Origin: an uncultured Bacilli bacterium
GTDB lineage: Bacteria > Bacillota_I > Bacilli_A > RF39 > UBA660
DNA length: 64,000 nucleotides
Reading direction: 5' to 3'
NCBI GenBank assembly: GCA_934087065.1
Contig: CAKOIS010000005.1
Span: 2,789 to 66,788 of the forward strand
Position numbers and translations under genes: made by a program. Numbering within the stretch: the stretch's first letter is position 1; each line of letters starts with the position of its first letter. Below are positions 14,727 through 48,754 of the stretch, one piece after another. The notes under the pieces were generated by a model. The model had not been told where the DNA came from. It saw only the letters and a program-made list of their open reading frames with translations, and made no database searches.

Positions 14727-14750
14727 TAATTTAGTTAAGGGGGAACGTAT

Positions 14751-15584
14751 ATGTTAGATAAAGAAGTGTTAGAGTTATTTTGTGAGCAAATGAATAATGC
14801 CAGCATCTTTAATAGAGTATTTATAGAAAAATTAACAAGTCTGTTAAAACAAAGTAAATACTTTGAAAATTTAAACCCTATACTATTTAAAAAAACAAAC
14901 TTTTTAACTGAAGCTGACACCTTTGATAATGAAATAACTATGCACCCAGAAATAATCAACGCAAGTTATCAAAACTCTTTAGATAAATATGGTATTCTTA
15001 ATGATACTTTATTTACAAGGAACATCTATAGAACTATTTCTCTACTACATGAACTTACTCATGTATATCAGTTTAACTTAGAAATGAACGAAATTAAAAA
15101 AGTATATCTAGAGTGTCTAAAAGTAAAAGAAGGATACGTTTTAATGAACAACAATCTAGATAAATTAATAGTCAAACTTCTTAACAAGCTAAATCTAAAA
15201 ACACAAAGTGAATTATATGTAGCTTTAAAGTCTTACGGTTTATACATGAAAAATCATGATATGTTTCCAATTGAAAAAATGGCAGATGGGTATGCTTATA
15301 AATATTTGATAGAAATATATCACATGCTAGGAAAGGAATACTTTAAAGATTTTGATAGTTTCTTAGACATAATGATTTATCATATTATAAAAGATTACTA
15401 CCAAGAAGGTGATTTAGTTAGTACACCATATAATAGATTTTTAACTTTAATTAAAAGACATGGATACACTTTTAAAGACATAAATATACAAAACATAAAT
15501 GCATACGATAGACTACTTATTGGAATGGAAGAAGATAAAAATACTATAAATAATATAATAAATACTAAAATATTAAGGAAATAA
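14751..15584 (+). CDS. hypothetical HExxH-motif protein, paralog B
   Basis: 'LLHELTHVYQF' and 'FPIEKMADGYAYKYL' match paralog A motifs. SD AGGGGG. Confidence 0.5.
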   Translation: MLDKEVLELFCEQMNNASIFNRVFIEKLTSLLKQSKYFENLNPILFKKTNFLTEADTFDNEITMHPEIINASYQNSLDKYGILNDTLFTRNIYRTISLLHELTHVYQFNLEMNEIKKVYLECLKVKEGYVLMNNNLDKLIVKLLNKLNLKTQSELYVALKSYGLYMKNHDMFPIEKMADGYAYKYLIEIYHMLGKEYFKDFDSFLDIMIYHIIKDYYQEGDLVSTPYNRFLTLIKRHGYTFKDINIQNINAYDRLLIGMEEDKNTINNIINTKILRK

Positions 15585-16386: not shown

Positions 16387-16398
16387 AAGCTCTTTTTT
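16378..16398 (+). terminator. efp terminator
   Basis: agagc/gctct stem then T6. Confidence 0.5.
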
Positions 16399-16401
16399 GT
16401 G

Positions 16402-16430
16402 TTGAATTTTTATATAATTTATGTTATCAT
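16402..16430 (+). promoter_or_regulatory. promoter TTGAAT-17-TGtTATCAT for leader / paralog copy 1
   Basis: Same architecture and spacing relative to the conserved 'aaagatagg' box as at copies 2 and 3. Confidence 0.45.
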
Positions 16431-16440
16431 TTTAATGTAA

Positions 16441-16610
16441 TAAAGATAGGAGATAAACATATGAAAGATACATTTTTAGTACAAAGTAAACTACAAAATG
16501 GGGGGGGTTATTTAAGTAAAGTAAATAACTTAAGTTTTCATATGTCTAAATATAATGGATAGAATAAGTCTACCCATTTTTTGTTGTGTAAGAAAGAAGG
16601 AGTATGATTT
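16441..16610 (+). promoter_or_regulatory. conserved leader, copy 1: SD + leader ORF (16461-16562, 33 aa) containing G8 tract (16500-16507) + terminator hairpin (16555-16583) + SD of main gene
   Basis: Leader ORF MKDTFLVQSKLQNGGGYLSKVNNLSFHMSKYNG*. Its TAG stop lies in the 5' arm (atggatag) of the hairpin atggatag/ctacccat, which is followed by TTTTTT. Homologous leaders at 36215-36393 and 47098-47272. Confidence 0.55.
16500..16507 (+). repeat. poly-G homopolymer (G8) inside leader ORF
   Basis: Read directly from the sequence. G-runs of 8 or more are otherwise absent from this 30% GC window. Confidence 0.9.
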
Positions 16611-18257
16611 ATGAATAAGAAGAGTATAACAATATTAGTAGTGTGTTTAATAGTGACTGTGTTGTCAGTCAGTTTAGCATACTATAGTGCTAGAATAATA
16701 GGTGATGGGAAAAACGTAAGCGTGAATGCAAAAGAGCTTACAATAAACTTTGACAATAATAACGAAATAGCGAGTGGTATAATTGAACCAGGTTGGAGTA
16801 GTTCTAATACTTTTAGTGTTACTAATAAAAGTAAAACTAACTTTACATATGATATTGTATTAAAGAACTATAAAAATACTACTAAGACTAATGGATACCT
16901 AGTTTATAAAATAACTAGTACAAATGGTTACAATATGACTGAATATAAAGATATGCCAAAAGATGGAGATAATACATATGACCTAGTAATTGCTAGAGGC
17001 ATAACTATTGAACCAGGAAGTAGTAATAAACAAAGTTATACTTTAGAAATAAAATACCTAGATAGCACTGAAGACCAAAGTATAGATATGGGGTCAACTG
17101 TTACAGGTAGTTTATATATAGTAGAAAGTACAACAAACGAAAATAACCCATATACTAAAGGAACATTAGGTTATCAAATAATGGAAGATAACTCAAATAT
17201 TAAAACTAGAACAGATTTTAGTAAAACCTACACAGATGTAAATATTGGAACAATGTATAAAGCACAAGAAGAAAATACTGACGTTTATTATTTTGCAGGA
17301 GATGCAAGAAACAACTGGGTTAAATTTGGAACATGGAAGGAAGATAAAACCATAATAGTTGGATATTACGACACATCAGCTTTTCAGGGCAAACTTTATG
17401 ATACGTTAGAAGAATGTAATACGGCTAGTTCATATAATAAAAATTGTCACTCAGTTACATTGGCTAAAAAAGGAAATGCAATGTACTGGAGAATAATTCG
17501 TACAAATAATGATGGAAGCATAAGACTATTATACGCAGGGACTAATCCGTATGGTAATGAAGCATATGTAAATATAAGTGTATATAATTCTCCATATAAT
17601 AACCCTATGTATGTAGGCTATATGTATGGAACATTAGGCTCTTTGGAAAATAATAGACAAAACACAACAGATAGTTCGGTTAAATCAGCAATTGATAATT
17701 GGTATGTAAATAACATGACATCATATACAAAATATTTAAGCACAAGTGCAGTATATTGTAATGACCGTAGCATACCAAATTCAGACTATAACACTGATAA
17801 AACAGGTTTTAATTATAATTCAGTGTATAGGTTAAATACTAACAAAACTCCAACATATAATTGCGAAAGCGAATATGACGCTTTTAGTGTAGAAAATGCA
17901 AATGCTAAACTAACTTACCCAATAGCCTTAATGACAGCAGACGAAATTGCATATGCAGGTGGTTTACACAACACTCGTTCTGAAACGTGGGTATATAAAA
18001 GTGCTGTACTTAATTCTGACAATGAAAATATTATAAGTGCAACAGGAATTACAAGGTGGTGGACAATGAGCCCTGGAATTTGGGAAGGAACAATATCTAG
18101 AACATATTTTTTAAACACTGTAGCTTGGCCAGGACATTTAAGTACGCAATATATTAATTATGGATATGGTGTAAGACCAGTAATAAGTATAAATAGAAAT
18201 AACATATGGAAAAGTGGAGATGGAAGCGTAGAACATCCATATGAAATTAGTAATTGA
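16611..18257 (+). CDS. secreted paralog family member 1 (548 aa); SipW-cognate-like signal peptide, TasA/camelysin-like N-terminal region
   Basis: N-terminus 'MNKKSITILVVCLIVTVLSVSLAYYSARIIGDGKNVSV...IEPGWSSSNTFSV'. Conserved C-terminal block shared with copy 3 ('WRIIRTN.DGS.RLLY.GT', 'YPIALMTADE', 'VRP'). Confidence 0.6.
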   Translation: MNKKSITILVVCLIVTVLSVSLAYYSARIIGDGKNVSVNAKELTINFDNNNEIASGIIEPGWSSSNTFSVTNKSKTNFTYDIVLKNYKNTTKTNGYLVYKITSTNGYNMTEYKDMPKDGDNTYDLVIARGITIEPGSSNKQSYTLEIKYLDSTEDQSIDMGSTVTGSLYIVESTTNENNPYTKGTLGYQIMEDNSNIKTRTDFSKTYTDVNIGTMYKAQEENTDVYYFAGDARNNWVKFGTWKEDKTIIVGYYDTSAFQGKLYDTLEECNTASSYNKNCHSVTLAKKGNAMYWRIIRTNNDGSIRLLYAGTNPYGNEAYVNISVYNSPYNNPMYVGYMYGTLGSLENNRQNTTDSSVKSAIDNWYVNNMTSYTKYLSTSAVYCNDRSIPNSDYNTDKTGFNYNSVYRLNTNKTPTYNCESEYDAFSVENANAKLTYPIALMTADEIAYAGGLHNTRSETWVYKSAVLNSDNENIISATGITRWWTMSPGIWEGTISRTYFLNTVAWPGHLSTQYINYGYGVRPVISINRNNIWKSGDGSVEHPYEISN

Positions 18258-18270
18258 ATAGCAAACAAAA

Positions 18271-18298
18271 AGAGAAAAACTAAAATTTTCTCTTTTTA
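18271..18298 (+). terminator. rho-independent terminator
   Basis: agagaaaa/ttttctct stem then T-run. Confidence 0.5.
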
Positions 18299-18423
18299 AG
18301 TGTCACAGTTTCTTCTTTTTTTAGTGTTTCTTTTTCTTTATGTAGTGTATCCATTTTATTATTAACTGATAACACAAATATTAAAGCAAAAACTAAAGCA
18401 AGAAATTTCTTCTTATTATTCAT
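18280..18423 (-). CDS. possible 47-aa small exported peptide
   Basis: GGAGGA SD 4 nt before ATG. MNNKKKFLALVFALIFVLSVNNKMDTLHKEKETLKKEETVTLKKRKF. Not in ORF track (<60 aa). Speculative. Confidence 0.2.
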   Translation of the reverse strand: MNNKKKFLALVFALIFVLSVNNKMDTLHKEKETLKKEETVTLKKRKF

Positions 18424-26785: not shown

Positions 26786-26935
26786 TATTTACAAAATTAA
26801 CTTTTTGTAGTAAAATACTATTCATGAGTTCGCCGTAGACCGTAGGTATACAAATAAATCCTACCGAGGAAGACTAATCTTTTAAGAAGTTTTCCTTGTG
26901 CGGAAAACTTTTATTAATATTATAAGGAGGAAAAA
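26786..26935 (+). promoter_or_regulatory. rplJ (L10) leader with stem-loops / attenuator
   Basis: 150-nt untranslated region between rplA and rplJ. Hairpins cgccgtagaccgtagg...cctaccgagg and gaagttttcc/ggaaaactt + TTTT. Matches position of the known L10 leader. Confidence 0.45.
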
Positions 26936-36182: not shown

Positions 36183-36212
36183 TTGACAAGGCTCACTAAA
36201 AAATGCTAAAAT
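36183..36212 (+). promoter_or_regulatory. promoter TTGACA-18-TGcTAAAAT for leader / paralog copy 2
   Basis: Sequence match to consensus. Confidence 0.5.
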
Positions 36213-36214
36213 TT

Positions 36215-36393
36215 AAGAGTAAAAAGATAGGAGAAGATATATATGGAATCTAACTCTTTAGTACAAAATGAAGTACAAATGGGGGGGGGTATTTAGTTTA
36301 GTAAATACCACTAGTTTTCATATACTTTTAATGAGATAGAATATTTTTCTATCTCTTTTTCGTGTCTTTAAAAAGAAGGGAGAGCATAAAATT
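36215..36393 (+). promoter_or_regulatory. conserved leader, copy 2: leader ORF 36243-36296 (MESNSLVQNEVQMGGGI*) with G9 tract 36281-36289; terminator 36333-36360
   Basis: Perfect 9-bp stem gagatagaa/ttctatctc then TTTTT. With G9 the leader ORF stops 37 nt upstream of the hairpin. Confidence 0.55.
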
Positions 36394-37689
36394 ATGCATA
36401 ACAAACAATTAACATTAGTTGTAGTAAGCCTTTTAGTAGTAGTACTAAGTGTATCACTAGCATGGTTTACAACACAAATATTGGGAAAGGGGAAAGACGT
36501 AAGTGTAAGTAGTGCTAACTTACAAATAATATTTACAGATAGTGACGGTGCTTTATCAGCAAATGATATAGAACCAGGATGGAGTGCAACAAAAACATTC
36601 ACTGTACAAAACAATAGTAAAGAAGAATACAAATACAATATTATTATAAAAGATTTGGTAAACACATTTGTAACAAACGGATACTTACAATACAAGATAA
36701 CTAGTACAAACGATGGATATAATATGACAGAGTATAAGGATATACCAAAATCTAGTACAGCTAAAGATATAATACTTGCTTATAGTGTATCTATACCAAA
36801 GGGAGAAACTCAAACATACACAATAGAATTTAAGTATGCAAATGACGAAAGCAAAGACCAAAGTGTAGATATGAATAAGAAACTGAGTGGAACTTTATTT
36901 ATAACAGAAGGAATAGAAGAACCAAAATCACTTGCAACATTAATACAAACAAATGCTATAAATGAAAATGGATATAGATATGAAGGAACAGACCCAAATA
37001 ACTATATACAAATGGAGAAGACTGATGGCACAACAGAAATATGGAGAATAATAGGGTTATTCCCAGATGGAGAAAATGGAGAAGATGTAATAAGAGTAAG
37101 AAAAGTAGAATATGAGAGTGCTCCTTATGACTCAAATGATACAAACCATTGGCCAAATACAACGCTATATACATATTTAAAAGATACATATTCATTAACA
37201 AATTATAAAAACACAGTAAACTATAAAATGTACTTAGGTGGTGCAAGTAGTATATCAAGTTATACATCACAAGACTTATATGATATGGAAAGAATGTTAA
37301 ATAGTAAAGGAACAGCAGGAAAAACATCACAAAATAGTTATTCTAGCACAACAACATTTACAGGAAGTGTAGGACTAATGTATCCAAGCGATTATGGGTG
37401 CGCTGTACTAGCAAGTGACTGTGCAAGAACAATCACGCCTGAAAAATATACTGAACCAGCAGCATGCCACGATAACAACTGGTTATTCCAAGGTTCAAAT
37501 ATTCGACAATGGTTAATAAGCCCAGGCGTCTCTTTTAATAATTATGCGTTCATTGTCCATGCTAATGGGTATGCCACTCACATGTACATCGTAACTGTTT
37601 CCGTCTCTTATAGCCCAGTTATGGCTCTAAAGTCCGATGTAATCGTAACAGGAAGTGGTACACAAAGTGACCCATATGTAATGAATTAA
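36394..37689 (+). CDS. secreted paralog family member 2 (431 aa)
   Basis: N-terminus 'MHNKQLTLVVVSLLVVVLSVSLAWFTTQILGKGKDVSV...IEPGWSATKTFTV', about 65% identical to copy 3 over the first ~175 aa. Divergent C-terminal half. Confidence 0.6.
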   Translation: MHNKQLTLVVVSLLVVVLSVSLAWFTTQILGKGKDVSVSSANLQIIFTDSDGALSANDIEPGWSATKTFTVQNNSKEEYKYNIIIKDLVNTFVTNGYLQYKITSTNDGYNMTEYKDIPKSSTAKDIILAYSVSIPKGETQTYTIEFKYANDESKDQSVDMNKKLSGTLFITEGIEEPKSLATLIQTNAINENGYRYEGTDPNNYIQMEKTDGTTEIWRIIGLFPDGENGEDVIRVRKVEYESAPYDSNDTNHWPNTTLYTYLKDTYSLTNYKNTVNYKMYLGGASSISSYTSQDLYDMERMLNSKGTAGKTSQNSYSSTTTFTGSVGLMYPSDYGCAVLASDCARTITPEKYTEPAACHDNNWLFQGSNIRQWLISPGVSFNNYAFIVHANGYATHMYIVTVSVSYSPVMALKSDVIVTGSGTQSDPYVMN

Positions 37690-47061: not shown

Positions 47062-47090
47062 TTGAAAAATAGTACTTTTTTTGATAAGAT
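47062..47090 (+). promoter_or_regulatory. promoter TTGAAA-17-TGaTAAGAT for leader / paralog copy 3
   Basis: Same spacing to the 'aaagatagg' box as copy 1. Confidence 0.45.
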
Positions 47091-47097
47091 TATCTTG

Positions 47098-47272
47098 TAA
47101 TAAAGATAGGAAGTGAAGTACATGAAAATTAACTCTTTGGTACAAAATAAAGTACAAAATGGGGGGGGGTTATTTAAATAGTATAAATAACTATAGTTTT
47201 TCATGTGCAATTAAATGGATAGAATAACTCTACCCATTTTTTCGTGTCTTAAAAAGAAAGGAGAACATTAAT
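47098..47272 (+). promoter_or_regulatory. conserved leader, copy 3: leader ORF 47122-47181 (MKINSLVQNKVQNGGGLFK*) with G9 tract 47161-47169; terminator 47215-47243
   Basis: Hairpin atggatag/ctacccat + T6 identical to copy 1. In the G8 frame the ORF would read ...GGGYLNSINNYSFSCAIKWIE*, similar to the copy-1 leader peptide, and would end inside the hairpin. Confidence 0.55.
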
Positions 47273-48754
47273 ATGCAAAAGAAAAAATTAACACTTGTAA
47301 TAGTAAGCTTACTTGTAGTAGTACTAAGTGTATCACTAGCTTACTTTACAGCACAAATAATAGGAAAGGGTAAAAATGTAAGTGTAACAAGTGCTAACTT
47401 ACAAATAGTATTTACAGATAGTGATGGAGCTTTAACAGAAACTGGTATAGAACCAGGGTGGCAAAAAACTAAAACTTTTACTATTAAAAATGATACTAAG
47501 ACAGAATACAAGTATAATATAGTAATAAAAGACTTGTTAAATACTTTTGTAACTAATGGATACTTACAATATAAGATAACTAGTACAAATAATGGATATA
47601 ATATGACTGAGTTTAAAGATATTCCAAAGTCAAGTGCACCTAAAGATAAAATACTAGCTTATAGTGTTAGTATTCCAGTAGGAGTAACACAAAGTTATAC
47701 TATTGAATTTAAGTATGCAAACGATGAAAGTGTAGACCAAAGTGATGATATGGGTAAGAAACTAAGTGGAACACTATTTATAACTGAAGGAACAGAAGAT
47801 CCAAACAAAACACTTTTAACTCAATTATTTGCAGACAAATCAACAGTATTAACAAGAACAGACTTTAGTACAGTATTAACAACAGATAATACAAAAACAT
47901 TATATACGGGAACAGAGAATGGAACAACAGTATACTATTTTGCAGGGAATGCAACAGATAACTGGGTAAAGTTTGGAAAGAATGCAAGTAATGAAGACTT
48001 ATACTGGAGAATAATAAGAACAAACTCAGATGGTAGTGTAAGACTTTTATACCATGGAACAAGTACAACAGCAACAGACGCATATATAGGGACATCAGCA
48101 TTTAATAGTAGTAATAATGATATAGCATATGTAAGCTATATGTATGGAAATTTAGGAAGTGTTGCAAATGCTAGAGAAAATACAACTAACAGTACAATAA
48201 AAACAATAATAGATAACTGGTATAAAGATAATTTGAATACAAATTATGGTAAATACCTAAGTACAACAGCAGTATACTGTAACGATAGAAGTACATCAGA
48301 TAATGCATCCTTTGGAGCACGTACAAGACTACAAACAAATAAAACACCAACATATGACTGTTCAGTAGCAGAAGACAAATTCACAGTAGACACAAGTACA
48401 GGAAATGGGAAACTAACATACCCAATAGCATTAATGACAGCAGACGAAGTAAGTTTTGCAGGTGGAGTATGGATAGTAAATGCACCTACATGGTATTATA
48501 AAAATAGTGCAAACGAAAGCTCTACAGACTCAACCTGGTGGTGGTTGTTGTCTCCTCGCGGTTGGTATGACAGCGTCGCTTACGTGTTCTACGTGTCCGG
48601 TTCGTCCAAACCTGGCTACTTGTACGACAACAGCGTCAACTACACCACCCGTGTGCGTCCAGCCCTATCACTAAAATCTTGTGTTAAATATGCAAATGGA
48701 GATGGCTCAGCAAGCGCACCATACACAATAAAAGAAACTTCAAGTGGGTGCTAA
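47273..48754 (+). CDS. secreted paralog family member 3 (493 aa)
   Basis: N-terminus 'MQKKKLTLVIVSLLVVVLSVSLAYFTAQIIGKGKNVSV'. Central/C-terminal block homologous to copy 1. GC3-rich patch at ~48553-48666. Confidence 0.6.
   Translation: MQKKKLTLVIVSLLVVVLSVSLAYFTAQIIGKGKNVSVTSANLQIVFTDSDGALTETGIEPGWQKTKTFTIKNDTKTEYKYNIVIKDLLNTFVTNGYLQYKITSTNNGYNMTEFKDIPKSSAPKDKILAYSVSIPVGVTQSYTIEFKYANDESVDQSDDMGKKLSGTLFITEGTEDPNKTLLTQLFADKSTVLTRTDFSTVLTTDNTKTLYTGTENGTTVYYFAGNATDNWVKFGKNASNEDLYWRIIRTNSDGSVRLLYHGTSTTATDAYIGTSAFNSSNNDIAYVSYMYGNLGSVANARENTTNSTIKTIIDNWYKDNLNTNYGKYLSTTAVYCNDRSTSDNASFGARTRLQTNKTPTYDCSVAEDKFTVDTSTGNGKLTYPIALMTADEVSFAGGVWIVNAPTWYYKNSANESSTDSTWWWLLSPRGWYDSVAYVFYVSGSSKPGYLYDNSVNYTTRVRPALSLKSCVKYANGDGSASAPYTIKETSSGC

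Follow-up and report, generated by a model that had tools for sequence, protein, structure and literature searches.

Why does each of three related genes in a stretch of DNA from an uncultured Bacilli bacterium stand behind a leader that carries a run of eight or nine guanines? The stretch, here called the window, is the whole 64 kb that was analysed (contig CAKOIS010000005.1, positions 2,789 to 66,788; guanine plus cytosine content 28.8%). It holds exactly three members of one gene family, and one homologous leader lies 5' of each. Only three runs of at least eight G occur in the window, a G8 at 16500-16507 and two G9 at 36281-36289 and 47161-47169, and all three are found at homologous positions in these leaders. 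Together they give 5 overlapping matches to GGGGGGGG, against 0.03 expected from dinucleotide-preserving shuffles of the window, which is far beyond chance. The reading that we favour, and to which we assign a probability of roughly 0.7, is that each paralog sits behind a phase-variable leader-peptide attenuator of approximately 170 nucleotides (nt), where the gain or loss of one G would flip the gene.

In the proposed mechanism, a sigma-70-type promoter would give a leader RNA with a small open reading frame (ORF) preceded by a Shine-Dalgarno (SD) sequence, and the G8-G10 tract inside this ORF would gain or lose a G through slipped-strand mispairing at replication. In two frames the ribosome would halt at conserved stops past the tract, a hairpin followed by a U run would form as a terminator, and transcription would stop before the gene (OFF). 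In the third frame the ribosome would cross the 3' strand of a long-range helix, P1, and move into the 5' arm or the loop of the terminator, or past it altogether, such that the hairpin would be blocked and RNA polymerase could enter the gene (ON). P1 pairs the AUG of the small ORF with a terminator-proximal segment, and would probably block late initiation and tighten the OFF state. That the tract mutates by slippage, that transcription ends at the hairpin, that an occluding ribosome averts this and what P1 contributes are all inferred; the anatomy, the frames, the variation in tract length, the conservation of the hairpin and the frame bias of locked variants can be read directly from sequence, as described below.

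Three leaders with one anatomy

The three leaders, each of about 170 nt and with a mean column identity of 78%, share their anatomy although the housekeeping genes around them are unrelated: one follows efp, one lies between rpoC and obg, and one follows a CmpB-like gene. The parts always follow in the same order, namely a sigma-70-type promoter with an extended -10 element, an SD and ATG, the G tract, stops in two frames no more than 20 nt past the tract, a hairpin with U5-U7, and then the ribosome-binding site (RBS) and start of the gene approximately 30 nt beyond the hairpin. Within the window, the motif AAGATAGGA is found at the three leaders only. All coordinates below refer to the + strand unless stated otherwise.

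The putative promoter of copy 3 (47062-47090) comprises TTGAAA and TAAGAT separated by a 17 nt spacer, with TG before the -10 element. A promoter lies at the same position in copy 1 (16402-16430; TTGAAT, 17 nt spacer, TATCAT, with TG) and in copy 2 (36183-36212; TTGACA, 18 nt spacer, TAAAAT, with TG; 11/12 matches), and the element is conserved in the class of leaders called type A below. Read from the sequence, the SD of the copy 3 small ORF is AGGAAG (47108-47113), and the RBS of paralog 3 is AAAGGAG (47257-47263).

As assembled, with G9, the copy 3 small ORF runs from ATG 47122 to TAG 47179-47181 (47122-47181) and encodes MKINSLVQNKVQNGGGLFK; both the tract and this stop had been described in an earlier note on this DNA, and our re-reading of the sequence confirms them. 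The TAG is part of a conserved pair of OFF-frame stops (47175-47181), the other being TAA 47175-47177, which would be met at G7 or G10. At G8 or G11 the ORF would instead extend across 47122-47227 and encode MKINSLVQNKVQNGGGYLNSINNYSFSCAIKWIE, with the end ...GGGYLNSINNYSFSCAIKWIE. The earlier note was right that the G8 frame reaches a TAA, but this codon (47225-47227) lies in the hairpin loop and not in the hairpin arm atggatag (47215-47222), where the note had placed it. The putative attenuator (47213-47242) has a stem at 47213-47223/47229-47239 formed by AAAUGGAUAGA and UCUACCCAUUU, a loop of AUAAC and a tail of U6, with a predicted energy of -8.5 kcal/mol and a z-score of -2.9.

In copy 1, the small ORF as assembled (16461-16562) carries G8 at 16500-16507, encodes MKDTFLVQSKLQNGGGYLSKVNNLSFHMSKYNG and, being already in the read-through frame, ends at TAG 16560-16562 within the 5' arm of the hairpin; hairpin and U6 occupy 16553-16583 (-6.8 kcal/mol). 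In copy 2, the small ORF as assembled (36243-36296, encoding MESNSLVQNEVQMGGGI) carries G9 at 36281-36289 and stops at 36294-36296, and at G8 it would reach TAG 36337-36339 in the hairpin arm. The putative copy 2 attenuator (36333-36360) is a perfect 9-bp stem, GAGAUAGAA / UUCUAUCUC, followed by U5 (-11.4 kcal/mol, z -4.2), and carries compensatory changes. The predicted states in this assembly follow the frame: copy 1 ON, copies 2 and 3 OFF, and copy 3 ON at G8 or G11.

The three copies also share a feature just 5' of the tract, GTAC-N8-[GC]TAC (agtacaaaataaagtac), which is conserved in type A and type B leaders and in the window lies at 47140-47155, 16479-16494 and 36261-36276. It could be a small hairpin, a pause site or a binding site.

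Reading frame and tract length in homologous leaders

To place the window copies in context, metagenomes were scanned with the terminator motif. This gave at least 120 loci, mostly in human-gut assemblies, and 111 non-redundant leaders, of which 107 could be parsed, having an SD-preceded ATG; all leader statistics given here are among the matches listed. Three leader subtypes are seen. Type A, with a leader peptide of the form MKINSLVQNKVQ[MN]GGG..., is the type found in the window; type B reads MTNNYVNKLSY...VQNKVLNGGGYYLLTNLK..., and type C reads MKTKYAVKPSMGGGILRLIINLN....

A tract of at least eight G is present in 87/107 leaders (G8 in 22, G9 in 49, G10 in 15 and G12 in one). In every one of these 87, exactly one frame is free of stops from the tract to the hairpin, and the other two frames have 1-5 stops. 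The positions of the stops fall into separate classes. Relative to GATAGAAT, the open frame ends at +2 (the TAG of GATAG), at +7 (GAATAA or GAATGA) or at +31, past the whole terminator; stops in the other frames lie at -32 to -47, or approximately 27-42 nt from the stem base, the stem starting 5 nt before GATAGAAT.

Of the leaders whose tract is interrupted or lost, here called locked variants, 17/20 are fixed in the read-through frame, where one third would be expected. The interruptions are diverse (ggggtgggg, gggagggg, gaggaggaa, caggggtaa, ggaggaatg and others), and apparently represent many independent sequence changes. The frame is likewise preserved by compensating arrangements, A3/G9 in some leaders and A4/G8 in others. 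Three loci are locked OFF, and the downstream gene of one of these (L101) is degenerate. L101 combines an internal deletion in the gene with a disrupted tract, and the paralogs behind OFF-frame leaders at L049, L056, L084 and L116 are also shortened, the range including L101 being 78-174 amino acids; such shortening may reflect decay of copies that have long been OFF, or further frameshift sites.

Tract length varies at what is evidently one locus. Downstream of an identical efp protein, the leader has G8 in the window, G9 in three other assemblies (L151, L152, L155) and G10 in a fourth (L156), which supports the suggestion of the earlier note that the three paralogs are independently switchable, each locus having its own tract that varies independently. 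A further set with shared flanks comprises L072 (G9), L140 (G8) and L125 (gggagggg); same-locus pairs were called by an ungapped flank comparison, which is crude, and only matches in the upstream flank were used, as identity downstream is unreliable. For most of the leaders the ON length is G9. The share that is ON is 31/49 for G9, 5/22 for G8 and 1/15 for G10, and the leaders that are not ON divide into 28 at one G below the ON length and 23 at one G above it.

These comparative data support G8 as the selected ON frame of copies 1-3, and the assignment of copy 1 as ON and copies 2 and 3 as OFF, both of which had been put forward in the earlier note. The reasoning offered there does not hold. 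It rested on conservation of the post-tract peptide in one frame only, and a likeness between the peptides of copies 1 and 3 does exist in the read-through frame; over the first 9 codons past the tract, however, the other two frames reach identities of 7/9 and 6/9, compared to 5/9 in the read-through frame itself. With 24/30 (80%) of the nucleotides past the tract identical between the two copies, all frames look about equally conserved and no single frame can be singled out on this basis.

There is an experimentally dissected precedent. In Streptococcus gallolyticus, the pil1 and pil3 loci have GCAGA repeats in a leader-peptide gene that shift its frame; a short peptide that ends 39 bp before a stem-loop terminator gives low expression, and longer peptides that end within or after the terminator, where the ribosome prevents its formation, give high expression, as was established by mutating the ATG and the stop codons and by deleting the terminator (PMC3894217). 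The pil1 system is also functional in Lactococcus lactis. The order of parts is the same as in the window: promoter, SD-preceded leader ORF bearing the repeat, premature stem-loop terminator (a putative one here) and surface-protein genes. The geometry also agrees, with the short-peptide stop approximately 39 bp before the hairpin there and at -39/-43 here, and the long-peptide stop within or after the hairpin in both. Both hosts are gut-associated Bacillota with more than one such locus per genome. The weight of our argument rests on this precedent, on the locked variants and on the stop positions.

The systems also differ in several respects. The repeat in S. gallolyticus is 13-23 copies of GCAGA, changing in 5-nt steps, whereas here it is a G8-G10 homopolymer changing in 1-nt steps; both out-of-frame states are high for pil1, whereas one of three frames is predicted to be ON here; and the reported energy of the pil3 terminator is -28 kcal/mol, compared to -7 to -11 kcal/mol in this AT-rich genome. 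The extra long-range helix at the AUG (P1), the occurrence of at least three leader subtypes, the many copies and the uncultured host are particular to the present case, and the cargo there is sortase pili, as opposed to a large uncharacterised paralog family and a helix-turn-helix (HTH) regulator. Comparison with the pil1 leader, made by eye and without alignment, gave no sequence likeness. The mechanism is proven in S. gallolyticus; here it is predicted from sequence.

Several observations weigh against the proposed switch. Copies 1 and 3 have weak hairpins, of -6.8 and -8.5 kcal/mol, with an A.C mismatch, and a simple terminator scan missed them. The ON state is only mildly enriched among the tracts of at least eight G (38/87, against 29 expected), the homologous leaders are non-independent samples, and a single open frame past the tract arises in 45% of shuffles, so that it is not rare for any one sequence. 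In leaders with ACAAAAT before the G tract, which include window copies 1 and 3, the ON length is G8, yet G8, G9 and G10 are found 3, 6 and 3 times, and the copy 3 locus in other assemblies is G9 in three and A3+G10 in one, all OFF. Because the ACAAAAT leaders are mostly G9, tract length may mainly reflect a mutational equilibrium near nine, with loci mostly OFF, or an ATG without SD may be used. In Bacillus subtilis, RNA polymerase reportedly runs ahead of the ribosomes, and this would speak against tight coupling between the two. Finally, a promoter-like sequence (TTTTCA or TTCATA, 16-17 nt, TAGAAT; 9/12 matches) overlaps the 3' strand of P1 and the terminator arm in all three copies (47198-47225, 16537-16565 and 36315-36342), and, if active, would bypass the attenuator; matches to TTTTCA-16-TAGAAT in the three copies are not above shuffle expectation.

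Leader RNA structure and competing explanations

The hairpin and its U5-U7 tail are conserved among the leaders with compensatory changes, and are taken as a putative terminator, with the weak stems of copies 1 and 3 noted above. A second conserved element is P1, the long-range helix between the AUG region and a segment 5' of the terminator that appears in the RNAalifold consensus of 25 leaders of the window type. In copy 3 its 5' strand, GUACAUGAAAA (47118-47128), includes the small-ORF AUG, and its 3' strand, UUUUCAUGUGC (47198-47208), lies directly 5' of the terminator and is translated in the ON frame only. P1 shows a C-G to U-A change in 6 sequences, and 97% of its cells are paired. For the hairpin and P1 together, 96% of cells are paired, with a covariation score above that of all 500 shuffles and all slid controls, and the leader folds better than its shuffles (z -3.1). 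In type B leaders, the consensus fold has little covariation outside the terminator. A trp-like antiterminator, in which the 3' strand of P1 would pair with the 5' arm of the terminator, was considered and rejected, as no convincing complementarity was found by eye, in minimum free energy folds or in consensus folds.

Since the only segment translated specifically in the ON frame is the 3' strand of P1 plus the hairpin, and since these hairpins are weak, the same data could describe a post-transcriptional switch, where translation of the long small ORF opens P1 and the hairpin and so affects mRNA stability or translation of the gene, with termination playing no part. The coupling of ribosomes to RNA polymerase in Bacillota is itself debated. 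We consider this explanation unlikely. The conserved U5-U7 after the hairpin is typical of intrinsic terminators, the RBS of the gene, 15-25 nt further on, lies outside any predicted structure, and the analogue that has been dissected by experiment acts on transcription (PMC3894217).

The structure data raise a second alternative, namely a leader that regulates in cis as a structured RNA, either in the manner of a riboswitch or by binding a protein; the tract and GTAC-N8-GTAC would then be structural or recognition elements, tract length would tune folding and the small ORF would be incidental. The fold z-score and the covariation of P1 fit such an RNA, as does high nucleotide conservation alongside an unconstrained peptide, and the AAAUGGG found at the tract of copies 1 and 3 complements CCCAUUU in the 3' arm of the terminator. 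That pairing was rejected as a general feature, being conserved neither in copy 2, where the terminator arm is now CUAUCUC with the tract unchanged, nor in type C leaders. Nor do the consensus structures show stable pairing of the G tract. A search of Rfam with the window leaders and five related loci gave no family at gathering score, and only noise at E<=10. A structural role would also leave unexplained the SD and ATG, the single open frame in 87/87 leaders, the conserved OFF stops and the 17/20 locked variants, and on balance we find this explanation quite improbable.

Homopolymers are error-prone, N gaps follow G8 in two scaffolds (L004, L020) and many contigs break in the leader, so the differences in tract length might be sequencing or assembly noise at loci that are in truth fixed, with a leader-peptide attenuator or with nothing regulatory at all. 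Lengths of 8-10 nevertheless recur in more than 80 independent assemblies from different assemblers and are centred on the ON length with neighbours on either side (28 at ON-1, 23 at ON+1), while stable interrupted variants occur in the ON frame and the A3/G9 and A4/G8 arrangements compensate to keep it. Noise would not give rise to such a frame structure, and as the whole explanation it is very unlikely.

It is also conceivable that all tract lengths are partly ON, with the tract merely setting a level, through slippage of RNA polymerase, ribosomal frameshifting or initiation at an ATG that abuts the tract. Copy 3 has such an ATG (47159-47161), which ends in the first G of the tract. No SD precedes it, and at G9 it falls in the read-through frame, so OFF may be leaky in copy 3. 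A G9 run could allow re-pairing of tRNA-Gly or transcript slippage, and the ACAAAAT-type leaders are, as noted, mostly G9. Against this, the tract-abutting ATG lacks an SD and is missing from many type B leaders (AAAC+G), type B leaders with ACTAAAT are ON at G9 only relative to the upstream ATG (11/14 are G9), and no stimulatory structure is seen past the tract. We regard a graded output of this kind as having very little likelihood.

The last question is whether the leader peptide matters as a product. Codon-position diversity shows no consistent third-position excess across the leader subtypes, the synonymous share of single-nucleotide codon differences in the leaders is 10-30%, and the end of the peptide may be rewritten by one-base indels (SFSCAIKWIE to SFHVQLNR), provided that the frame still ends in the hairpin. 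The tolerated recoding and the lack of a coding signal indicate that selection acts on where the ribosome stops, and not on the peptide sequence; a conserved functional leader peptide was therefore rejected on the codon-position and synonymous/non-synonymous results. That the small ORF encodes a functional small protein, itself phase-varied by the tract, is hardly credible for the same reasons and given a C-terminus set by the hairpin sequence, even though its 33-55 amino acid products have recurring motifs (YYLLTNLK, ILRLIINLN).

Known systems, distribution and cargo

The proposed switch has relatives among other regulatory systems. Neisseria pilC is another example of translational phase variation by a homopolymeric tract, and the E. 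coli pyrBI and trp leaders are ribosome-occlusion attenuators. Clostridioides difficile cwpV reportedly encodes a phase-variable surface protein controlled by a conditional intrinsic terminator in its 5' leader, which is set by recombinase-mediated site-specific inversion; it would share with our loci the phase variation of a surface protein via a leader terminator, and differ in having neither repeat slippage nor a leader peptide. The poly-G contingency genes of Campylobacter jejuni (PMC11955535) resemble the window tracts in having G8-G10, one-G steps, ON and OFF set by the frame, and a G9-ON, G8/G10-OFF appearance. There the tract lies inside the regulated gene, whereas here a separate upstream small ORF would make a transcriptional decision; with the tract outside the regulated gene, the regulated protein would never be truncated or altered.

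Ribosome-mediated attenuation is described for msrD and hflXr in Firmicutes (PMC10314930, PMC6310831). Ribosome-occlusion attenuators resemble the proposed switch in that formation of a downstream intrinsic terminator hinges on where a ribosome stands on the leader ORF; the input there is nucleotide or amino-acid supply or antibiotic stalling, and here it would be a heritable frameshift. A further difference is that no alternative antiterminator hairpin is evident here. Our literature search found no further case, in poly-G form or in a gut commensal, of a termination switch set by a repeat in a leader peptide. As far as these searches show, the route from frame to transcription termination by a leader-peptide repeat has been demonstrated in one species in the searched literature (PMC3894217). 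The window leaders are probably a poly-G, multi-copy variant of this known phase-variation and attenuation mechanism in a common lineage of uncultured gut Bacilli. An independent version would mark the leader switch as a recurrent solution for stochastic control of surface proteins, and not a streptococcal curiosity. As the regulated genes would be intact when OFF, metagenome surveys based on gene content or frameshifts would miss the variation entirely; the length of the tract in metagenomic reads could, in their place, reveal directly which loci are ON or OFF.

The abundance of the system in gut metagenomes is indicated by the 120 or more loci of the scan, by about 7,900 homologues of the cargo and by the presence of the neighbouring efp protein in 2,464 assembly-index blocks. 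Reference genomes with both the gene family and the leader are 'Clostridium sp. CAG:628', the Bacillota metagenome-assembled genome (MAG) UBA11492 and an uncultured Eubacteriales MAG; where homologues of the cargo are more distant, the leader is absent. Downstream of type A and type B leaders are paralogs of the window genes or other membrane-anchored proteins. At L032, L037, L057, L065, L075 and L129, a type B leader precedes a different membrane-anchored family (MKKYIIASLTITIIVF..., >590 amino acids), so the cassette is not tied to one gene family. A type C leader (MKTKYAVKPSMGGG...) is found at L026:2718-6957 (minus strand), and likewise at L041, L054, L058 and L139. The type C cargo begins with an 80 amino acid HTH_3 regulator, and behind it are encoded two large proteins (817 and 494 amino acids) that have the C-terminal domain of the window paralogs; given the position of the leader 5' of the HTH_3 gene, a transcription factor appears to be under the same poly-G switch. 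In the type C leaders of L026 and L074, the tract is replaced by ggaggaatg and locked in the read-through frame.

More tentatively, and as a possibility to which we would not yet give even odds, these data may be read as a genome-wide contingency network. A very prevalent lineage of uncultured gut Bacilli, near 'Clostridium sp. CAG:628' and UBA11492, might run it from a portable cassette of promoter, poly-G leader ORF, P1 and terminator, in at least three subtypes, with dozens of surface or secreted paralogs switched independently and an HTH regulator operon switched via type C. The P1 gate, which is undescribed for pil1, might then restrict rescue to ribosomes loaded before the 3' strand of P1 is transcribed.

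Assembly of these regions is itself imperfect. In scaffolds with N gaps, the gaps start right after G8 at L004:2137-2144 and L020:2109-2116, and many contigs end within the leader or where the conserved 5' end of a paralog lies (L002, L003, L005, L010, L011, L013, L016). Such breaks fit assembly failure induced by repeats or heterogeneity, and leader copies are therefore probably under-counted in MAGs. The efp locus (window 16387-18300, compared with L148-L157) is polymorphic for the presence of the paralog: some strains have the leader and a variant of 548/549 or 753 amino acids, whereas the paralog is missing from others, some of which have an unrelated insert of approximately 230 nt directly before the L28 and nfo genes.

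The three window paralogs encode proteins of 548 (paralog 1, 16611-18257), 431 (paralog 2, 36394-37689) and 493 amino acids (paralog 3, 47273-48754). Paralog 3 has a hydrophobic N-terminal signal or anchor, a beta-sandwich domain and a weak match to DUF6273, and a search of all three against Pfam and NCBIfam gave only this borderline DUF6273 match. The family is very large: of 8,000 candidates that were scored, about 7,900 proteins reached E<=1e-5, and almost all of them come from ENA metagenomes. A sequence search of the PDB with the cargo gave no match. An AlphaFold2 model of the cargo has a predicted local distance difference test score of 53; residues 41-190 form a confident beta-sandwich, the remainder is poor and the N-terminus is hydrophobic. 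Foldseek matches to this model are generic beta-sandwiches. The AYFTAQ-like signal peptide of the cargo is one that we take to resemble those of SipW-dependent proteins; assignment of the cargo to the SipW-dependent (TasA/camelysin-type) secreted proteins found no support, as these searches gave no match to family models or fold.

Two other elements of the window were noted. An ordinary ribosomal protein L10 leader (RF00557, 48.8 bits) lies at 26815-26924, upstream of the rplJ/rplL-rpoB-rpoC region. Another G run that varies in length is found at 14739-14743, with G5 in the window and G6 or G7 in other strains (L152:410-416; L155 and L156:411-416). This run falls in the SD region, after a TTGACA/TACAAT promoter and ahead of the gene at 14751-15584, and may tune the SD or its spacing.

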